From Candidatus Gottesmanbacteria bacterium (lineage in GTDB: Bacteria > Patescibacteriota > Microgenomatia > UBA10105 > UBA927): a stretch of 64,000 bases of DNA. The position numbers and the translations under genes were made by a program. Below are positions 1,750-39,036 of the stretch, in pieces (the stretch's first letter is position 1; every line of letters begins with the position of its first letter). The notes under the pieces were generated by a model that saw nothing but the letters and a program-made list of their open reading frames with translations, was not told the DNA's origin and searched no databases. The stretch is taken from contig JAHFKK010000001.1 in assembly GCA_023245335.1 (NCBI GenBank), positions 491,282 through 555,281 of the forward strand. Direction: 5' to 3'.

Positions 1750-3438
1750 ATGATATCATATGAAGCGATGAAGAAATGGCTGATAGCAAACAAAGCCGGT
1801 GATACCGCGGATAAAGATCTGGAAGAGCATCTTCTCGCAGAGCTTCTTAAGGGTAAAGGACTGGACACCAAAAAGGCGGTTGAAGAATTTCTTCATCCGA
1901 TAAAGGCTATGGAGTTGAGTGCGTCTGACGTCGGAATAGACCCCTCGGAGCTTCGTGAAGCTCTTGCACGGATCACAAAAGCTGTTAAAGAGAAAGAATC
2001 TATCGTCGTATATGCCGATTATGACGCTGACGGCATAACCGCAGGGGCAGTGATGTGGGAAACACTTTGGAAGTTGGGGGCGAGAGTGATGCCGTATATC
2101 CCGCATCGGGTAGACGAGGGCTACGGGCTTTCAACGAAAGGAATTGATGCTGTGCGCGAGCAGTATGACCCCACGCTTATCATCACGGTTGATCACGGCA
2201 TCACGGCGCATGAAAAGGTAGCCTATGCCAAAAAGTTGGGGATAGACGTCATCATTACCGACCATCACGTCAAACCGAAGAAGCTGCCTGATTGTACGAT
2301 CGTCCACACGACGAACCTTGCAGGGAGCGGTGTGTCATGGTTTGTCGCCAAAGAATTGGCAAGGGAAAGCACAGAGCATAGAATTGAGGACGGCGTCGAG
2401 GATTTATTGGCGCTTGCGGCTCTCGGTACCATCGCGGATTTAGTTCCGCTTATCGGTCCTAACAGGTCTATTGCCAAGTACGGACTCGAGGTTATGCGCA
2501 GGACCCGTCGCGTGGGTTTAAACGCACTTATGACGGACGCAGGAGTCACCAAAGAGGGCATCGAGACATATATGATATCTCATATGCTGGCCCCGAGGTT
2601 AAACGCCATGGGGCGGCTTGAGCATGCGCTTGATGCGTTACGGCTCCTCTGTACGAGTGACGGCACGAAAGCTACCCTCCTTGCTCAAAAGTTGGGGCTC
2701 ACGAACAAGGAACGGCAGCAGCTGACGGAGGATACCGTGGTGCATGCGCATACGATACTTCCCGATAAATCGAAGAAGCTTATATTTATCGCTCACGAAA
2801 GCTACAACCAGGGAATAATCGGGCTGGTCGCCGGGAAACTTGCAGAAGAATACTATCGTCCCGCGATCGTGGTATCTATAGGAGACGGGTTTTCCAAAGC
2901 TTCGGCGAGATCTATCCCGGGATTTAATATCATTGATGCGATCCGCACATTCAGCGATCTTCTGGTAGATGCGGGCGGGCACCCCATGGCGGCGGGATTT
3001 ACCGTCGAGACCAAGAATCTCGGTAAGCTTCAGAAGAAACTGGAAGCTCTCGCGGAGAAAGAACTGGATGAGGAGAAGCTGACGCGCGTACTGAAAGTCG
3101 ATATGGAAATTCCGCTCACGGCGGTAAAAGAGACATTGTGGAAAAAAATACAGCAATTTGCACCTTTCGGGATGGGTAATTTCGAGCCGGTATTTGCAAG
3201 CCGGGGAGTGACCGTATCGGATGTTCGTCTGATCGGCGCTACCAGAAAACATCTCAAGCTCAAAATTCTCGCGCCTGATTTATCTGCACCGCTGGACGCC
3301 ATAGGATTCAGCATGGCCGGCGTCTACGGCAAACTCAAGCCCGATAAGCCAGTCGATATAGCCTACACGATAGACATGAATGAGTGGAACGGTAGACGAC
3401 AACTGCAGCTCAAGTTAAAAGATATCCTCGTACCATAA
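1750..3438 (+). CDS. recJ: Single-stranded-DNA-specific exonuclease RecJ (DHH/DHHA1)
   Basis: 'VYADYDADGITAGAV', 'TVDHGITAHE', 'ITDHH' DHH motifs and a C-terminal DHHA1 'GGHPMAAGF'. Start chosen at ATG 1750 (MISYEAM); the upstream part of ORF 1552.. overlaps cca and is judged an artefact. Confidence 0.85.
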   Translation: MISYEAMKKWLIANKAGDTADKDLEEHLLAELLKGKGLDTKKAVEEFLHPIKAMELSASDVGIDPSELREALARITKAVKEKESIVVYADYDADGITAGAVMWETLWKLGARVMPYIPHRVDEGYGLSTKGIDAVREQYDPTLIITVDHGITAHEKVAYAKKLGIDVIITDHHVKPKKLPDCTIVHTTNLAGSGVSWFVAKELARESTEHRIEDGVEDLLALAALGTIADLVPLIGPNRSIAKYGLEVMRRTRRVGLNALMTDAGVTKEGIETYMISHMLAPRLNAMGRLEHALDALRLLCTSDGTKATLLAQKLGLTNKERQQLTEDTVVHAHTILPDKSKKLIFIAHESYNQGIIGLVAGKLAEEYYRPAIVVSIGDGFSKASARSIPGFNIIDAIRTFSDLLVDAGGHPMAAGFTVETKNLGKLQKKLEALAEKELDEEKLTRVLKVDMEIPLTAVKETLWKKIQQFAPFGMGNFEPVFASRGVTVSDVRLIGATRKHLKLKILAPDLSAPLDAIGFSMAGVYGKLKPDKPVDIAYTIDMNEWNGRRQLQLKLKDILVP

Positions 3439-3684
3439 AAATCCCCGCGTTCTTTGCGGCGCATATGCCGGTGAACACGGGGATTTATGAATTAATACAC
3501 ATAGAATTCCCTCCATCCACCAAATGCTCACGAATGAAAACTATTCTTCATTCGCAGGAAAAGGGTGGATGGAAAGATTAAAAATCGGAAATAGTAGTAA
3601 TGAATATAAAAGTAACTCGCAAGTGAGTTAATCTAGTTTCCACTAAGCTCTAAGTCGATAAAATGATTCAAGGAAAAGACCTTG

Positions 3685-3731
3685 AAAAAAAGGGGGGACC
3701 CAGCAAGATTGCTGGAGCTGGGTCCTCACCC
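3685..3731 (-). terminator. Rho-independent terminator (minus strand)
   Basis: Perfect hairpin GGACCCAGC-AAGATTGCTGGA-GCTGGGTCC (3696-3725). On the minus strand it is followed by CCCC+T7 (complement of the A-run 3685-3691). Confidence 0.6.
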
Positions 3732-4198
3732 TCATGACGTTCCCGCCTATCTTTGCTGATTAGTTGTTGTCTGTCTCTCCTGAAGACACCTCCAGCATGT
3801 TTGCCCTTGGCGTAAAGTCACGTCAGGATGCTTTTGGCAATGCTTGCTTAATTGTCCCGTGTGGGTGATAACACGTGCCATTTTTGGTCTTGCGATAATC
3901 GAACGAACATGGTGATGATTGTGAGTCGATTCTTGTCGGTGTTGACTGTTACTTGTACACATCAGGTTTGCTCCTCATTTGATTTGTCTTGCTCGGATTT
4001 GGGTTTTACTTCGTACTGCGGTGTTCGTTTGGTTATTGGGTCATAAAGATTGTATCTCCTTCTTAATTTAATTTTTGAACAAAAAGAAAGACAGAAGGAT
4101 AGGAATTTCTGTCTTTATCCTTGGTCAAAACTCTATTTGTAAAAGAGCAACAACGCCTTCTCACAGCTAGTTCTTAACAGTTCGCTAAAAAACAGCAC

Positions 4199-4465
4199 TT
4201 ATTTTTCGGGATCAGTGTCTGTAATCAGATGTTTCATGGCGTTAAATGTTTCTATTATTCTCTTGCCACGCTTAGCTTGGTTATGTGCCTTCCCTGATTC
4301 AAATGAGTGAGTCAGTCTTAATATGACACTGTCTGCGTCTCTACGAGGAACTCTGGCTGCACGATAACCTCGCCGTAGCCCTTCGAGTGCTAATTCGACA
4401 CCGTCCTTGTCCGCAACATTTCCATATAGCGCGGCTTCCTCAAATATTTTTTCTGCGTTTACCAT
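4199..4465 (-). CDS. Hypothetical 88-aa basic protein; sole ORF of a minus-strand unit bracketed by two terminators
   Basis: ORF track only; no recognisable motif and no obvious SD. It lies between the terminators at 4629-4662 and 3685-3731. Confidence 0.3.
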   Translation of the reverse strand: MVNAEKIFEEAALYGNVADKDGVELALEGLRRGYRAARVPRRDADSVILRLTHSFESGKAHNQAKRGKRIIETFNAMKHLITDTDPEK

Positions 4466-4628
4466 ATGATTTGTTTATAGAGTCAGTTAGTGTGACTGAG
4501 CTCGGAAACAATACCGCGATTTTTTCATTGTTTTTTCCGCGGAATGTCGTTACTTCCCATAAACAGGGAGACTTAGTAAATAATGATTTGGTTTCTACAG
4601 ATTGATTTAGTTCCATACGTATTCCCAT

Positions 4629-4662
4629 TAAAAAACCCCGCTTGGTGCGGGGCTCTTTGTTG
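4629..4662. terminator. Bidirectional intrinsic terminator hairpin
   Basis: A6-CCCCGC-TTGGT-GCGGGG-CTCTTTGTT: GC stem flanked by an A-run upstream and a T-rich tract downstream, so it reads as stem+U-tract on both strands (stronger on minus). Confidence 0.6.
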
Positions 4663-4796
4663 GTCTTACTGAAAAATTTCTTTATGCAGCAGTCTCCACA
4701 AGAGCCCCTTCCGCCTTTCGGAGGGTAATAAGGGCCATAATGTGGACGTACTGGCTTTGCATAAGAAAAATATATTATATGGATCAAACTGGCATA

Positions 4797-4825
4797 TTGT
4801 CAAGAGTTAAATCGGGAGATATACT
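4797..4825 (+). promoter_or_regulatory. Sigma70-like promoter for the aspS leader
   Basis: -35 TTGTCA (4797-4802), 17-nt spacer, -10 TATACT (4820-4825). Confidence 0.45.
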
Positions 4826-4831
4826 TGCGGT

Positions 4832-4980
4832 GACGAAAGAATACAGCGCAGATGGCCTGACAAGCCGGAGCTTCCTGGTGTCGTAACCGGGACGGGAGAG
4901 CCCGTAACCACTCAGAATGAGAAGTAAGTAAGGTGGCACCACCCCCGATCAACATCGTGGGTCCTTATATCAGGGAACGG
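4832..4980 (+). promoter_or_regulatory. Structured 5' leader of aspS with intrinsic terminator; candidate compact T-box (Asp) riboswitch or attenuator
   Basis: 'AAGGUGGCACCACC' resembles the T-box 'AGGGUGGNACCGCG' (UGGC would pair with tRNA-Asp G73-CCA). There is a GGC-CUGACAA-GCC hairpin with a GAC(A) Asp codon in the loop, and a long hairpin GGCACC...GGTGCC (4925-4974) followed by T6 (4975-4980) 44 nt before the aspS ATG. Confidence 0.4.
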
Positions 4981-5023
4981 TGCCTTTTTTGATGGTGAAA
5001 TCATGATAAGATGGAGGTAATCT

Positions 5024-22869: not shown

Positions 22870-22940
22870 TGCGGGATCGTATAATGGTAGTACAGCAGAC
22901 TCTGAATCTGCTTATCTTGGTCCGAGTCCAAGTCCCGCAG
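22870..22940 (+). tRNA. tRNA-Gln (anticodon CUG), 3' CCA not encoded
   Basis: Hand-folded cloverleaf: acceptor TGCGGGA/TCCCGCA, D-stem GTAT/GTAC with loop AATGGTA, anticodon stem GCAGA/TCTGC with loop CTCTGAA, T-stem CTTGG/CCAAG with loop TCCGAGT (C at position 55). Confidence 0.7.
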
Positions 22941-23034
22941 CAAATAGAGACTATAACCCGAAAGCCAGTATCCAGAGTTAAAACGACGAAACGGGTCTAG
23001 AATGAGATACTAAACAAAGTGATAATTTACCAAA

Positions 23035-23328
23035 ATGAAAATATCTCTTATAAAAAAACCTGGCGCATGGATCCCGATTGTTCTTTCATTTATTATGTTG
23101 ATAGTTTTAGGCATGTACCTCACTGGGGTTCTTCCCCCTGATCCCACGGGCGATGAGGGTTTAGGGGCACATCTTTTTCAGATTTGGCTGGTCCTGGAAG
23201 CACTAATGATTCTGTTTTTTGCAGTGAAATGGTTTTCTAAATCGCCAAAACAAGCGTTTCTTATTCTTATAACCCAAATCGCTCTCGTACTTGCTGTCTG
23301 TGCTCCCGTTTTTTACTTTAACTGGTAA
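23035..23328 (+). CDS. Small 3-TM membrane protein, hypothetical
   Basis: Three hydrophobic helices; AT-rich context after the tRNA. Confidence 0.45.
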   Translation: MKISLIKKPGAWIPIVLSFIMLIVLGMYLTGVLPPDPTGDEGLGAHLFQIWLVLEALMILFFAVKWFSKSPKQAFLILITQIALVLAVCAPVFYFNW

Positions 23329-23427
23329 TCTACCAACAGTTCAGTTAGAAGGATAATTTAGATCTAGATTGGAATACTCAACACAAAATTTACACCAAAA
23401 ATTAGTCCTGAAATCGGCTATACTTTT

Positions 23428-23784
23428 ATGACCGTAATTGACGATTATCTGAAAAAGATTGACCCGGCAAAACGAAAACAGCTCGAGCGGATTCGAAAAA
23501 TCGCCATGCAAGTTGTTCCGGATGCACAAGAGGTTATTTCTTATGGCATGCCGACGCTACAATATAAAAGGAAATCTTTTTTGGGGTTTAACGCGCATGT
23601 GAATCATATCGGCATCTATCCGTACGGTGGCGAGGAGATAGAAGTATTTAAAGATAGGCTCGTTTCGTATGGCTGTTCTTTGGGAGCAATCCGTGTGCCT
23701 TTCGACAAGCCATTTCCAAAGAGTTTGCTCAAAGAAATCGTTAAACACCGCATAGAACGAGTCGTAGATCTAAAGGCAGGATAA
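23428..23784 (+). CDS. DUF1801 (YdhG/YdeI-like) domain protein
   Basis: 'DYLKKIDPAKRKQLERIRKI...SYGMPTLQYKRKSFLGF...HIGIYPYG' fits the DUF1801 pattern. Confidence 0.5.
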   Translation: MTVIDDYLKKIDPAKRKQLERIRKIAMQVVPDAQEVISYGMPTLQYKRKSFLGFNAHVNHIGIYPYGGEEIEVFKDRLVSYGCSLGAIRVPFDKPFPKSLLKEIVKHRIERVVDLKAG

Positions 23785-33473: not shown

Positions 33474-33554
33474 ATTCCTATTGGCTTACACATTCGGAGA
33501 AATGCAAGACAGGTCACAATCCTTCTGATTTGCAAGGTGCTAAAATACGATAGT

Positions 33555-34244
33555 ATGAAAAGCCTACACCGGAAGGTCGCATTCAGTGCGCTTAGGATTA
33601 TTGGAGTGTGCGCCGGTATCTTATTTTTTTGCCTTCTCATCCTTTTCACAGGATACATATACGCCCTACAGTCAAACCCGATGCTCTACATTCCCGGCGT
33701 TTCCGGACCGGCAAACAGTCTTATCGGTGTCATCTGGAGGCAACCGTTCAGCTATCCGTCGCCAACTCCAAAGCCTACTGTCCTGTATGGCACGATCAAG
33801 CCGGCACCGGAATTTACGGGTATCACGAAGTGGTACAAAGACGAAGCGGTTTCTCTGCGGCAATTCCGTGGTCAAAAAATTGTTGTGCTGGTCTTCGGAC
33901 GGTTGTATTGCTCGTATTGCTTCAACGTCTATACGTATCTTACCGAGTGGCAGCGGAATTACAGTTCAGAAAATGTACAGGTAGTCGCTTTGCAGTCACC
34001 ACATTATGACGGTGAGAAATCCTGGAAGGATATAGAAGCAAAGATAGTTGAGCGGGATGTGAATTTCCCCGTAGGACTGGACGAAAATCGCTCGACTGCA
34101 GCCGCTTATAACTTCGACACGGTTCCAACGGCGTATGTCATAGATAAACAAGGTATGATCCGCTATGAACATACGGGTGAAGGAGGCTTTGGTGAGGTAG
34201 AAAAGGCGATACAGGAAGTGATTTTTCTGGATTTTGATAAGTAG
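33555..34244 (+). CDS. Membrane-anchored thioredoxin-fold thiol:disulfide oxidoreductase (TlpA/ResA-like)
   Basis: TM anchor then 'VVLVFGRLYCSYCF' CxxC motif; an alternative GTG start at 33537. Confidence 0.7.
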   Translation: MKSLHRKVAFSALRIIGVCAGILFFCLLILFTGYIYALQSNPMLYIPGVSGPANSLIGVIWRQPFSYPSPTPKPTVLYGTIKPAPEFTGITKWYKDEAVSLRQFRGQKIVVLVFGRLYCSYCFNVYTYLTEWQRNYSSENVQVVALQSPHYDGEKSWKDIEAKIVERDVNFPVGLDENRSTAAAYNFDTVPTAYVIDKQGMIRYEHTGEGGFGEVEKAIQEVIFLDFDK

Positions 34245-34331
34245 AATATGGTGCAATACTTGTCTAGACGATGTAACATATTCGAAAGGATATAAATGGT
34301 CAGTTAATAATTATTTTAGAGCTTTACCTAA

Positions 34332-35186
34332 ATGAAAAAATATATAGTTCTTGACTCGAATATTATCGTAAGCTTTTTTGAAGGAGGATTTTCGCTCGTT
34401 CAGCAGAAAGGAGAGATTTCATCTTCTGAGGAAATAAGTATATTTGAATTTTTATATACTGCTTTAGAGGCGAATCAACTCGATTTAATCCTGCCCGAGG
34501 TTGTAATTTTAGAATGCGAACGTATAAAAGAGGAAATGAAAGAGTCGTTAAGTAAATTATACGATTCAGCATTTAAGTCTGCTAAGGAAGCGAGTATTCC
34601 CCCCAATAAAAAAATATCGTCCTCGTCAATTGATAAGATTAACCGAGTTTATGACTCAACCCGAGATGAGGCAATACAAAACATCGAATATGCTTGGGGG
34701 GTCTTTAATAAAATCTCTGAAAGTAAGAACACTCATATAGTCCCGCTAGATGAAGAGATTTTATTAAATGCATATAGGCGTGGTTTAATGGGAAAAAGGC
34801 CGTTCGTAATGAGGTATTCAAATAGTAAGGATCCAGACCTCAGTAATAAACCTATCCATGATATTCAACCAGATTGTGTTATTGTTGAGAGCGTCAAGTT
34901 CTTCATTAAAGGTGCAGAAAAGGGTGAATTATATTTAGCAACGAATGACAACAATTTTTTTTCTTCGATGGAAAAAACGGCGATACACACCGATATACAA
35001 GCAGAATTGAAAGCAAATAAATTTTATTTGGCTCTTTCTGATTTGTTGCAAGATGTTCTTGGTTTAAAAATACCACCTAAAAAAGAACCTAAAGACGTCA
35101 CCACCTCCGATGCGTACCCTGTTACCATCAAAAGCGTTACAGATGAAGGAAAAGGTGTGGATACCGTTGAAGTTGCAAAAGGCTAA
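34332..35186 (+). CDS. PIN-like nuclease-fold protein in an AT-rich island
   Basis: 'KKYIVLDSNIIV' (PIN beta1 Asp), 'VILECER', 'IQPDCVIVESV', 'LYLATNDNNFF' (T-x-D); coding sequence is visibly AT-rich. Confidence 0.5.
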   Translation: MKKYIVLDSNIIVSFFEGGFSLVQQKGEISSSEEISIFEFLYTALEANQLDLILPEVVILECERIKEEMKESLSKLYDSAFKSAKEASIPPNKKISSSSIDKINRVYDSTRDEAIQNIEYAWGVFNKISESKNTHIVPLDEEILLNAYRRGLMGKRPFVMRYSNSKDPDLSNKPIHDIQPDCVIVESVKFFIKGAEKGELYLATNDNNFFSSMEKTAIHTDIQAELKANKFYLALSDLLQDVLGLKIPPKKEPKDVTTSDAYPVTIKSVTDEGKGVDTVEVAKG

Positions 35187-35208
35187 AAACTTGCCTTAAT
35201 ATTATTAT

Positions 35209-35484
35209 ATGAATACCTACTTAGTATCGTTTGAGACACTCCCTCCCTCGCTCCAAATACAGGAGGATATCCTTATTAACGCAATAAAGATGTTTGGACC
35301 ATGGGCTAGACCTAACTCAAAGGTTTGGTTAATTAAAACTTATCTAACTAGGGAACAAGTAATTGAGAGTTTAAGAGCGAGTGCTGGCCCAAACGACAAA
35401 ATACTTGTTATGTCGGTTAATAATGATTGGATAGCGGTTAACCTTCCAAACGATGTCGTAAATTGGATGAAATCTGGTTTGTAA
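35209..35484 (+). CDS. 91-aa hypothetical protein, partner of the PIN-like gene (same AT-rich island)
   Basis: ORF track; 22-nt gap after the upstream gene; no motif recognised. Confidence 0.4.
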   Translation: MNTYLVSFETLPPSLQIQEDILINAIKMFGPWARPNSKVWLIKTYLTREQVIESLRASAGPNDKILVMSVNNDWIAVNLPNDVVNWMKSGL

Positions 35485-35538
35485 TATTTAAGATGTCGCT
35501 CGTTATTCTTCTTTACTAATCCCCATGGCTCATTTATA

Positions 35539-36723
35539 GTGAAGCTCTGTATGGTGACGCTCTCCAAAGATCAAAAAGCCGCATTATCACACGTTCTTGA
35601 GTGGTACCGAAAAGACCGGGACGAGATGCAGTACGTCACGCTTGGCGGCTATGCGGGGACCGGCAAGACGACGCTTATTGCCGTCATCCGTCAGGAACTC
35701 AATAAGATCGATCCGGGACTCAAAGTCGGTTTCGTGAGTTTCACCGGTAAAGCGGCGCGGGTGCTTCAGACGAAAATCAAAGAAGCGGATATACATTTCC
35801 GTCAGGACAGTGTGGGTACGATTCACGCGCTTATCTATACGCCGGTCCTCAATGACAAAGAACAAATTGTCGGATGGAAGCAAAAAGAAACGATTGACCG
35901 TAATCTTATTATCATCGATGAGGCATCGATGGTCGATTCCGTTATCTGGGAGCACCTCATATCCTACGACGTCCCGATGATCGTTGTCGGCGACCACGGG
36001 CAGTTGCCGCCTATTAAAGGTAACTTTTCTTTGATGCAGCAGCCCCAACTGCGCTTAGAAGAAATCCACCGGCAGGCAAAGCTTGACCCCATCATTTCCC
36101 TATCGATTCAGGCGCGGGAAACGGGCTTCATCATTCCCAAAAGGTATTCCGACCGGGTCATCAAATTCTCTTCGGATGACTCGACGACCGCAGAGACACT
36201 GGAGGAGATGCTCACGAACTACAAAAACGATACCCTTATCCTCTGCGGCTACAACAAAACAAGAAAACGGATAAATAGTTACATCCGCGCGGCACTCGGC
36301 ATAGAATCGCAAACACCGGTCACGGGCGATCGGGTTATTTGTCTCCGCAATAATCACAAAGCAAAGATCTATAACGGGATGCTCGGTACGATTGCCCGGA
36401 TAGAGGAAAAAAGCGATAGCGTTTACGACGTGGATATAGACATAGACGGGGAGCATGATACGTATTCAGGCCGCATCTCGACCGAACAATTTGACGCGGA
36501 TACGACGCTCAACTTCACCGAGAACCGTGCGCTCTATAACGGCATAGACCTTTTTGACTTCGGCTACGCGCTCACCGTGCATAAGGCCCAGGGGAGCCAG
36601 GCCAAACGGGTGATACTTTTCGAGGAGCGGTTTAGCCGCATGACGGATGACGAGTGGCGTCGCTGGCTCTATACTGCAGTGACGAGAGCTGAACGCGAGC
36701 TCTATATCTTTCCGTCGCTCTAG
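35539..36723 (+). CDS. SF1B Dda/RecD-like (Pif1-type) DNA helicase, compact 394 aa
   Basis: Walker A 'GGYAGTGKTT', Walker B 'IIDEASMV', 'VGDHGQLPPI', 'TVHKAQGSQ', 'LYTAVTRAEREL'. Confidence 0.8.
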   Translation: MKLCMVTLSKDQKAALSHVLEWYRKDRDEMQYVTLGGYAGTGKTTLIAVIRQELNKIDPGLKVGFVSFTGKAARVLQTKIKEADIHFRQDSVGTIHALIYTPVLNDKEQIVGWKQKETIDRNLIIIDEASMVDSVIWEHLISYDVPMIVVGDHGQLPPIKGNFSLMQQPQLRLEEIHRQAKLDPIISLSIQARETGFIIPKRYSDRVIKFSSDDSTTAETLEEMLTNYKNDTLILCGYNKTRKRINSYIRAALGIESQTPVTGDRVICLRNNHKAKIYNGMLGTIARIEEKSDSVYDVDIDIDGEHDTYSGRISTEQFDADTTLNFTENRALYNGIDLFDFGYALTVHKAQGSQAKRVILFEERFSRMTDDEWRRWLYTAVTRAERELYIFPSL

Positions 36724-38781: not shown

Positions 38782-39036
38782 ATGTTTACCGTTTATATCC
38801 TCCGCACATCTTCTGACACGCTTTATATCGGGCAGGCGAAGAATTTAGAGAAGCGACTTCTCGAGCACAAAAATAAAACAGCCAAATCTGCGAAATATAT
38901 GCGGTACTTCAGGTCATTTACTCTGGTCTATACGGAAGGCAAGCGCACGAGGAGTGCGGCTCTCAGACGGGAAGCGGAATTGAAACGCTTCACGAGAAGA
39001 CAAAAAGAAGTGTTGATTGCCGGGAAAACCCTCTAG
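38782..39036 (+). CDS. GIY-YIG nuclease-domain small protein
   Basis: 'FTVYILRTSSDTLYIGQAKNLEKRLLEH' GIY-YIG signature. Confidence 0.7.
   Translation: MFTVYILRTSSDTLYIGQAKNLEKRLLEHKNKTAKSAKYMRYFRSFTLVYTEGKRTRSAALRREAELKRFTRRQKEVLIAGKTL

Follow-up and report, generated by a model that had tools for sequence, protein, structure and literature searches.

What is an AT-rich pair of genes doing between a redoxin gene and a helicase gene whose base composition it does not share? The question is raised by a 64,000-nucleotide stretch of contig JAHFKK010000001.1 from a Candidatus Gottesmanbacteria bacterium (positions 491,282 to 555,281, forward strand), referred to here as the window, in which an island at 34245–35538 encodes a 284-aa protein of the PIN_12 family followed by a 91-aa protein with the fold of Cas2. 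The island was acquired by horizontal transfer and forms a cassette of two genes that is complete in itself. We consider it somewhat probable that this cassette is a mobile toxin–antitoxin (TA) or abortive-infection (Abi) type module, at which the PIN protein would be the effector and the Cas2-like partner would control it.

Composition and boundaries of the island

The island fills the 1294 bp that lie between the stop codon of the redoxin gene and the start codon of the helicase gene. Its GC content was 35.5%, against 49.9 ± 2.4% for the full set of non-overlapping 1294-bp windows (z = −6.1). In 300-bp windows the GC content stayed at 0.33–0.40 from about 34200 to about 35550, with values of 0.46–0.50 on the left side and 0.49–0.55 on the right side. 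The lowest of the 64 1-kb bins in the window was 34001–35000 (0.370), and the global minimum of a sliding 1294-bp window began at 34221. GC content at third codon positions (GC3) was 0.32 for the PIN gene and 0.38 for the 91-aa gene, in comparison to 0.52–0.63 for the six neighbouring genes. An earlier note, made from the sequence alone, had reported an abrupt AT-rich drop between flanks of native composition; these values bear it out, and a uniform composition and codon usage across the locus is excluded. The two co-oriented open reading frames (ORFs) and all the peptide motifs quoted in that note were present, and the thioredoxin-like gene that it saw ending at 34244 was identified by domain match as a resident AhpC/TSA-Redoxin gene of native composition (33537–34244, forward strand, GC 0.47, GC3 0.52), which marks the left boundary of the island and lies outside the module.

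The PIN_12 gene (34332–35186) and the gene of its 91-aa partner (35209–35484) are both on the forward strand and are separated by a spacer of only 22 nt (35187–35208), which implies operon-type coupling. The intergenic region upstream of them (34245–34331, forward strand, 28.7% GC) is, by its position, the presumed promoter region; a weak sigma70-like match was found at 34282–34311 and a 12-nt imperfect palindrome at 34244–34255 and 34272–34283. Promoter and terminator scans of the island gave matches no commoner than in shuffled sequence, and the DNA upstream of the cassette could not be aligned between cassette copies. An Rfam search for an RNA antitoxin or a known RNA gave no match at E ≤ 1.

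The island flanks showed no direct repeats, no terminal inverted repeats, no attC-like site and no integrase, and exact-protein look-ups for a redoxin–helicase junction lacking the island returned only contigs of the same strain, all of which had the island. A 15-nt unit, TATAGTGAAGCTCTG, is present in 1.9 copies at 35535–35563, at the right edge of the island, with no matching copy at the left edge. It overlaps both candidate starts of the helicase gene (GTG at 35539 and ATG at 35551), and it may be due to chance or may represent an insertion scar.

The first gene encodes a PIN_12 family protein

The 284-aa protein matched the Pfam family PIN_12 (PF16289, formerly DUF4935) with an E value of 2.6e-10 and 41.4 bits (cut-off 32); the match spans residues 5–209 and covers model positions 1–172 of 172, and all the 11 close homologues bear the same precomputed domain. 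In a 2017 classification of PIN domains, DUF4935 was listed with function unknown and as "usually monocistronic" (PMC5499597). One PIN_12 protein, Cosus (Brc24), is a single-gene integron cassette that protects Escherichia coli from T7, and mutating its predicted PIN residues lowers the protection more than 10^5-fold, to ~100-fold (bioRxiv 10.1101/2024.07.02.601719).

The AlphaFold model of the window protein, at moderate confidence (predicted local distance difference test, pLDDT, 72.7), has a PIN core that is VapC-like by fold search, with a two-helix insertion at about residues 56–129, a small C-terminal alpha/beta part and a disordered tail (253–284). Residues D8, E61, D181 and E186 were invariant in 12 close and distant relatives, in an alignment that reached down to 20–26% identity, while D206 was invariant within the close clade. 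The protein has both the fold and the three to five acidic residues in canonical order that define the PIN superfamily. As the acidic residues are invariant across close and distant relatives, the nuclease site is under selection, and the 284-aa protein is, from its sequence and model, a credible active metal-dependent nuclease with an intact acidic site.

NCBIfam gave no match for either island protein. In PADLOC v2.0 the PIN protein gave only CARF_PIN, at E 0.0066 and with no passing stretch. Homologues of the PIN protein were found in none of the viral contigs, the phage collection or the plasmids searched. Within the disordered tail (253–284), the close clade shares the C-terminal motif AFPLV..K..TDEGKGE......KG, at which P263, K283 and G284 are invariant; the motif is absent from more distant PIN_12 partners. 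This conserved tail may be a partner-binding or autoinhibitory element.

The second gene encodes a stand-alone Cas2-like protein

The 91-aa partner had been described as having no recognisable motif, and this description has to be withdrawn. Its model (pLDDT 93) has a ferredoxin-like beta-alpha-beta-beta-alpha-beta core followed by two extra C-terminal helices, the core fold being that of Cas2, VapD and GhoS, and phrog_1090 matches the protein end to end (E 1.1e-10). An acidic residue, E9, ends strand 1, and W32, W40, D63, W74 and W86 are conserved. The protein itself gave no direct match in Pfam, NCBIfam or PADLOC, and its profile retrieved nothing significant from the PDB sequences; the Cas2 assignment is thus based on fold searches and on family-wide Pfam matches, not on PDB sequence matches.

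A profile search of 1.84 billion representatives retrieved 710 relatives of the partner, nearly all of about 90 aa, which puts the size of the Cas2-like family at ~710 clusters at 50% identity. When 119 family members were scanned singly, 42 of them matched Pfam CRISPR_Cas2 (PF09827; best E 2.8e-7), and one plasmid member exceeded the gathering score of that model. Fold, length of about 90 aa and family-level similarity to the Cas2 hidden Markov model (HMM) all place the 91-aa protein in the Cas2 superfamily. The family consensus is M.TYLI.YDL...WA.P..S.WLIKT...D.NDKLLV..V...W...NL...V..W.K, with four near-invariant tryptophans, and strand 1 ends with an aromatic residue (Y/F8) in 97% and an acidic residue (D/E9) in 77% of the members. 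Databases label family members as "hypothetical", "SinR-like" or "CRISPR-associated Cas2", the last of which is misleading.

The two genes are inherited together in unrelated contexts

Close homologues of the island proteins are rare, with 11 for the PIN protein (41–61% identity) and 18 for the partner (63–76% identity) among 5.8 billion proteins. In all the nine distinct genome contexts that we read, the two genes were adjacent and in the same order, and where the distance between them was measured, in eight copies of the cassette, it ranged from −4 to 28 nt. Pairwise identities of the PIN and partner proteins were correlated (r = 0.91), and the partner was better conserved than the PIN protein in 28 of 28 comparisons (mean identity of 74.6% versus 56.9%). 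The cassette had a GC content of 0.28–0.36 in every host, host GC being 0.31–0.49, and one other copy (L001) showed a second sharp drop (0.30 versus 0.48); an AT-rich cassette in every host is what would be expected from repeated horizontal transfer out of an AT-rich donor pool.

The contexts themselves were mutually unrelated among the genomes read. In L001 the cassette lies near Obg/GreA, with a tRNA-Gln(CTG) gene directly 5′ of it at about 190 bp, while in L013/L014 a tRNA-Ser gene lies 29 bp upstream. An MwoI-type restriction-modification pair and a serine recombinase accompany the cassette in L006, a DNA methyltransferase in L122, and a rolling-circle Rep together with a serine recombinase in L016. 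Since the pair is co-inherited in unrelated contexts, often beside mobile or defence genes, the cassette is a mobile unit. The horizontal acquisition proposed in the earlier note is therefore upheld, both by the foreign GC and GC3 and by co-inheritance in the nine contexts; its failure to assign the pair to a named defence system is also matched by our results, as no PADLOC v2.0 model fits.

Partners of the Cas2-like family in other loci

With a narrower alignment of the family, 76 metagenomic loci and 2 viral loci with a Cas2-like gene were recovered. Of these, 72 were analysed and six, with very short or partial matches, were omitted; the sample is biased to the "YLISYDL" subfamily, and the clade to which the window belongs is not in it. 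In most of the 72 loci another gene ended −4 to +18 nt upstream of the Cas2-like gene. Among 44 distinct, tightly coupled upstream proteins, 17 matched PIN_12 and 13 matched PIN_8, and the sole PIN_8 representative checked (L046) matched PIN_12 too. With the HMMs built for this analysis, an adjacent PIN_12 or PIN_8 gene on the same strand was found in 25 of the 72 loci, and no PIN match was found elsewhere in the 294 kb of flanking DNA of the Cas2-like loci. PADLOC v2.0 gave no match for these PIN_12 and PIN_8 partners.

Predicted membrane proteins with two transmembrane (TM) segments took the place of the PIN protein in 12 loci, 1–18 nt upstream of the Cas2-like gene. Seven of these loci (L038, L041, L044, L045, L061, L076 and L077) encode a protein of ~97 aa, and the other five (L054, L058, L059, L063 and L074) a protein of ~211 aa that also has a coiled-coil tail. 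Both were considered as possible PINs and rejected, as hhalign gave no link to PIN. DUF2188, the PADLOC candidate PDC-S16, was the upstream partner in 4 loci. The order DUF2188, Cas2-like, SduA (Shedu) was observed in L062, L069 and L070, with SduA 16–36 nt downstream, and also in L112; the three genes may belong together, or the order may reflect the neighbourhood of a defence island. Downstream neighbours in the family included Shedu SduA, ResIII and restriction-endonuclease proteins, an SNF2 helicase, DUF3800, Ymh-type HEPN, SNase and NUDIX proteins, and have a defence-island flavour.

In cultured bacteria, the Cas2-like family was found in 71 plasmid records and 47 phage records. ColE1-type plasmids of 5–6 kb from Klebsiella and Rahnella encode an Abi_2/HEPN-like (PD-T4-5-like) protein of 220 aa, then the 91-aa Cas2-like protein, then a 574-aa PIN_8 protein, so that the Cas2-like gene comes before the PIN_8 gene and the order is reversed with respect to the window. 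These genes are the main cargo of Klebsiella pC51_006 (5240 bp; L117, 2090–4879); Rahnella pHW114B (5991 bp; L116, 2248–5124) has the same cargo, with the PIN_8 gene split into two ORFs. In 4.9-kb plasmids of Klebsiella and Enterobacter the Cas2-like gene adjoins an AbiLi-like ATPase. The order helix-turn-helix (HTH) regulator, Cas2-like gene, type I restriction-modification operon was observed in Acinetobacter pittii pAP2044-1 (L127, 3078–7276) and in five similar Acinetobacter plasmids, where the operon comprises hsdS-hsdM-hsdS and a NucS-like gene, all on the same strand. This suggests that the small Cas2-like protein can also accompany restriction-modification systems.

Solo Cas2-like genes were found in temperate phages, prophages, plasmids and defence islands. 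In the temperate phages phiFL1A (gp05; L119, 2601–2879), phiSP44-1 (gp11; L121, 3001–3264) and CP51 (L031, 4995–5270), the solo gene is antisense to the early lytic genes and on the same strand as the repressor and integrase genes. Further phage or prophage copies are those of L120 (3001–3270) and L110 (6001–6273). In a P2-like Klebsiella phage the solo gene lies beside the portal gene, and in a Brevibacillus prophage it lies within the structural module. Such moron-like positions of the phage copies suggest expression in the lysogen. A lone Cas2-like gene was also seen in a defence island of Patescibacteria, flanked by an S24/DUF4238 cluster on one side and an MmeI-type enzyme on the other.

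Proposed mechanism

The favoured reading, a TA or Abi-type module with a PIN effector under the control of a Cas2-like partner, could work as follows. The module would have entered a Gottesmanbacteria-like genome horizontally, between the redoxin and the resident helicase genes. The first gene, with its PIN_12 domain and VapC fold, would encode the toxic effector, most likely an RNase, and the second, on the same transcript and 22 nt downstream, would encode its controller, either an antitoxin or a regulator. In normal cells the Cas2-like protein would hold the PIN nuclease harmless. Once the supply or the activity of the controller fails, such as upon takeover by a phage or loss of the element, the PIN protein would cut cellular or invader RNA and growth would stop. 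Control could be exerted by protein binding, or by Cas2-like cleavage of the effector mRNA as in the type V system GhoS/GhoT. Control at the RNA level would explain how one conserved small family goes with unrelated effectors, and also its higher conservation.

The upstream partners of the family are taken as the probable effectors, as the toxic component of a TA or Abi system is usually a nuclease or a small membrane protein. The Cas2-like protein would be the controller rather than the toxin because solo genes indicate that the small protein is tolerated alone. Precedents exist for both parts, in Cosus for a PIN_12 protein that confers strong resistance to T7 and in GhoS for an antitoxin with the Cas2 fold.

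Several points weigh against this reading. Toxicity, neutralisation and phage defence, as well as the direction of control and an RNA substrate, are what we infer for the pair. The partner is the better conserved of the two proteins in every comparison, although an antitoxin usually changes faster than its toxin. It lacks a DNA-binding domain, and the effector-first gene order is unlike that of classical VapBC. Only 77% of the Cas2-like family have D or E at the end of strand 1, and nuclease activity of the partner family may, judging from this, not be general. Both components can occur singly: PIN_12 genes are reported to be usually monocistronic, Cosus consists of one gene, and the Cas2-like gene is often found solo. 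The pairing is therefore perhaps not obligatory. PADLOC v2.0 models neither island protein, the search of viral contigs found none with the PIN gene, and neither an empty site, a target-site duplication nor an integrase was found for the island.

A broader proposal, to which we would assign a low though not negligible probability, is that Cas2-like proteins are the invariant controllers of a large undescribed class of two-gene modules with interchangeable effectors (PIN_12/PIN_8 or two-TM proteins), acting either as RNase antitoxins in a type V-like manner or as nucleic-acid sensors. The family would then be a living relative of the TA ancestor of CRISPR Cas2, and the solo copies in phages and plasmids would serve in defence or counter-defence.

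Alternative readings of the pair

Perhaps the two genes are independent single-gene elements that travel together with no functional interaction. The mostly monocistronic PIN_12 genes, the single-gene defence of Cosus, and the solo Cas2-like genes in phages, prophages, plasmids and defence islands would all fit such an arrangement. However, the pair was never apart in the nine contexts of the window's clade and is closely spaced (−4 to 28 nt in the eight copies), the PIN gene was adjacent in 25 of the 72 family loci and non-adjacent in none, and the two kinds of gene are found together again in distant phyla and with either one first; we therefore consider co-travel rather unlikely.

The small protein could instead switch the nuclease on at infection, either by sensing a phage nucleic acid or protein or by scaffolding two PIN proteins. 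The Cas2 dimer bridges two Cas1 dimers, which offers an analogy for the scaffold. Such an activating role would suit the conservation of the partner above that of the effector, and the four almost invariant surface tryptophans would suit a common ligand; moreover, one small protein with interchangeable effectors recalls the sensors of other defence systems. On the other hand, a single domain of 91 aa is small for a sensor, and the solo copies would be left effectorless. This makes the activating role unlikely in our judgement.

Reversal of the roles is quite improbable. The Cas2-like protein would then be an interferase toxin of the VapD type, and the upstream PIN protein would neutralise or regulate it. 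Y/F8 and D/E9 are indeed kept in most members and resemble the catalytic Y-D pair of Cas2, and some members are preceded only by a small gene, as in vapX-vapD. Against this, solo copies are common in prophages and on the 4.9-kb plasmids, where no candidate antitoxin accompanies them, the complete acidic site of the PIN protein is under selection and would be needless in an antitoxin, and the two-TM proteins that are the other upstream partners are of a kind typical of toxins rather than antitoxins.

The adjacent helicase is a resident neighbour

The gene directly downstream of the island (35539–36723, forward strand, GC 0.51, GC3 0.63) encodes a compact superfamily 1B (SF1B) RecD2/Dda-like helicase of 394 aa and marks the right boundary of the island. 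It has AAA_30, AAA_19, SH3_13 and UvrD_C_2 domains and a Dda-like match to phrog_325, and it scored 138 bits against the RecD2 model, whose cut-off is 500. Its PADLOC matches reflect generic SF1B similarity. Orthologues with 70–77% identity were found in eight other genomes, labelled Candidatus Gottesmanbacteria, Patescibacteria or being mislabelled metagenome-assembled genomes. The downstream gene for the EngB GTPase was kept in 6 of the 8 orthologue loci, and the PIN, partner and redoxin genes were absent upstream of the helicase in all eight, at which the upstream genes differed. None of the eight has the island.

It could be supposed that the island and the helicase together form a nuclease–helicase defence system, and the earlier note had described the mobile pair as possibly working with the helicase. 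The two are adjacent in this genome only, and such a system could draw further on the generic SF1B matches to PADLOC models; in contrast, a helicase adjoined the cassette in none of the other eight distinct contexts of the pair, its composition is native, and its orthologue loci lack the island. The mobile pair therefore stands, while the helicase was rejected as a third component and lies outside the module; a joint system is very improbable. Equally improbable is a housekeeping RNA-processing PIN with a small cofactor, or a relic of CRISPR adaptation, since, even though some rRNA-maturation enzymes are PIN proteins and some databases call family members "Cas2", the homologues are very patchy (11 and 18 in 5.8 billion), the composition is foreign, the pair is absent from close relatives, and there is neither a Cas1 Pfam match in the gene tables of the cassette loci nor a tandem array in the 64-kb window.

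Other features of the window and of the cassette loci

The only tRNA gene in the window is a tRNA-Gln (CTG) at 22870–22941. On its 3′ side lies a kilobase of low GC content (0.43) with two small ORFs, one for a hydrophobic protein of 97 aa and one for a protein of 118 aa (feature 22870–23784). The L001 cassette lies 3′ of a tRNA-Gln(CTG) gene as well, and in these genomes that tRNA may be a site at which insertion recurs. The GC content is also lowered at 3001–5000 (0.43–0.46 in 1-kb bins); outside the island, the 1294-bp window with the lowest value (0.411) begins at 3491.

L013 and L014 carry the same cassette in two assemblies, and an extra 85-aa GIY-YIG gene lies just upstream of the tRNA-Ser in L014 only. 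An 84-aa GIY-YIG ORF is also present in the window (38782–39036). Genes for small GIY-YIG proteins seem to move about in these genomes.

Significance

If the favoured reading is right, the cassette represents a new TA or anti-phage architecture, at which a PIN_12 or PIN_8 nuclease is governed by a Cas2-fold protein. It would also provide a function for a large family of ~90-aa proteins found in Candidate Phyla Radiation (CPR) bacteria, in phages of Firmicutes and Proteobacteria, and in clinical plasmids of Klebsiella and Enterobacter, and would be a second case, much more widely distributed, of the rare type V logic of control known from GhoS. Cas2 has been related to a TA ancestor (PMC6452270), and the long-standing proposal that it arose from VapD-type TA modules would become testable with an extant non-CRISPR relative. 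Moreover, few other cassettes that are candidates for defence or addiction have been seen to move among small Patescibacteria genomes.

Comparison with known systems

A canonical VapBC was rejected, as the small gene is downstream, matches no Pfam DNA-binding domain and encodes a Cas2-like fold. The toxin candidate of the window is a 284-aa PIN_12 protein with a helical insertion of ~75 residues and a C-terminal extension, whereas VapC has ~135 aa; and the ferredoxin-like partner has none of the AbrB, ribbon-helix-helix or HTH domains.

Cosus shares with the window the PIN_12 Pfam family, a comparison made at the level of the family only, and the small mobile cassette. Yet Cosus is a single gene with attC, in an integron of Proteobacteria, while the window has a pair with an obligatory-looking second gene in a CPR host. 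A Cosus-type cassette was rejected for the window on account of its two genes, with no attC-like inverted repeat downstream and no integron integrase Pfam match in the context gene tables.

GhoS is a Cas2-fold antitoxin that cleaves the mRNA of the membrane toxin GhoT and so neutralises the toxin. The partner resembles GhoS in fold, at rank 2 in the fold search, although no similarity to GhoS was detected at the sequence level in the profile search against the PDB. The two-TM partners of the wider family likewise recall the logic of a membrane toxin with a Cas2-fold antitoxin. The window differs from GhoST in that its putative effector is a PIN nuclease rather than a membrane peptide, and in the reversed order of the genes.

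With VapD and CRISPR Cas2 the partner shares the fold, a weak but repeated CRISPR_Cas2 match, the length of ~90 aa and the aromatic and acidic pair that ends strand 1; its two-helix C-terminal extension and four tryptophans are specific to the window's family. A VapXD TA system was rejected because the upstream gene encodes the 284-aa PIN_12 protein and not a small VapX-like protein, and a CRISPR adaptation module was rejected on the two grounds given above, the missing Cas1 match and tandem array. A type III TA system of the ToxIN kind was rejected too, with no Rfam match and no tandem RNA repeats besides the 15-nt, 1.9-copy repeat at the helicase start, which was the only tandem repeat that the check for an RNA antitoxin found.

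The PDC-S16/Shedu islands contain the same Cas2-like family directly after DUF2188 and before SduA, but that arrangement has no PIN gene, and the window cassette has neither DUF2188 nor Shedu. No published description of a PIN_12 or PIN_8 gene paired with a Cas2-like gene was found in the literature covered, which was incomplete, so a prior description is possible. Small mobile nuclease-based TA and defence cassettes are well known; a PIN_12 or PIN_8 nuclease with a Cas2-fold partner would, if the favoured reading holds, be a new architecture among them.

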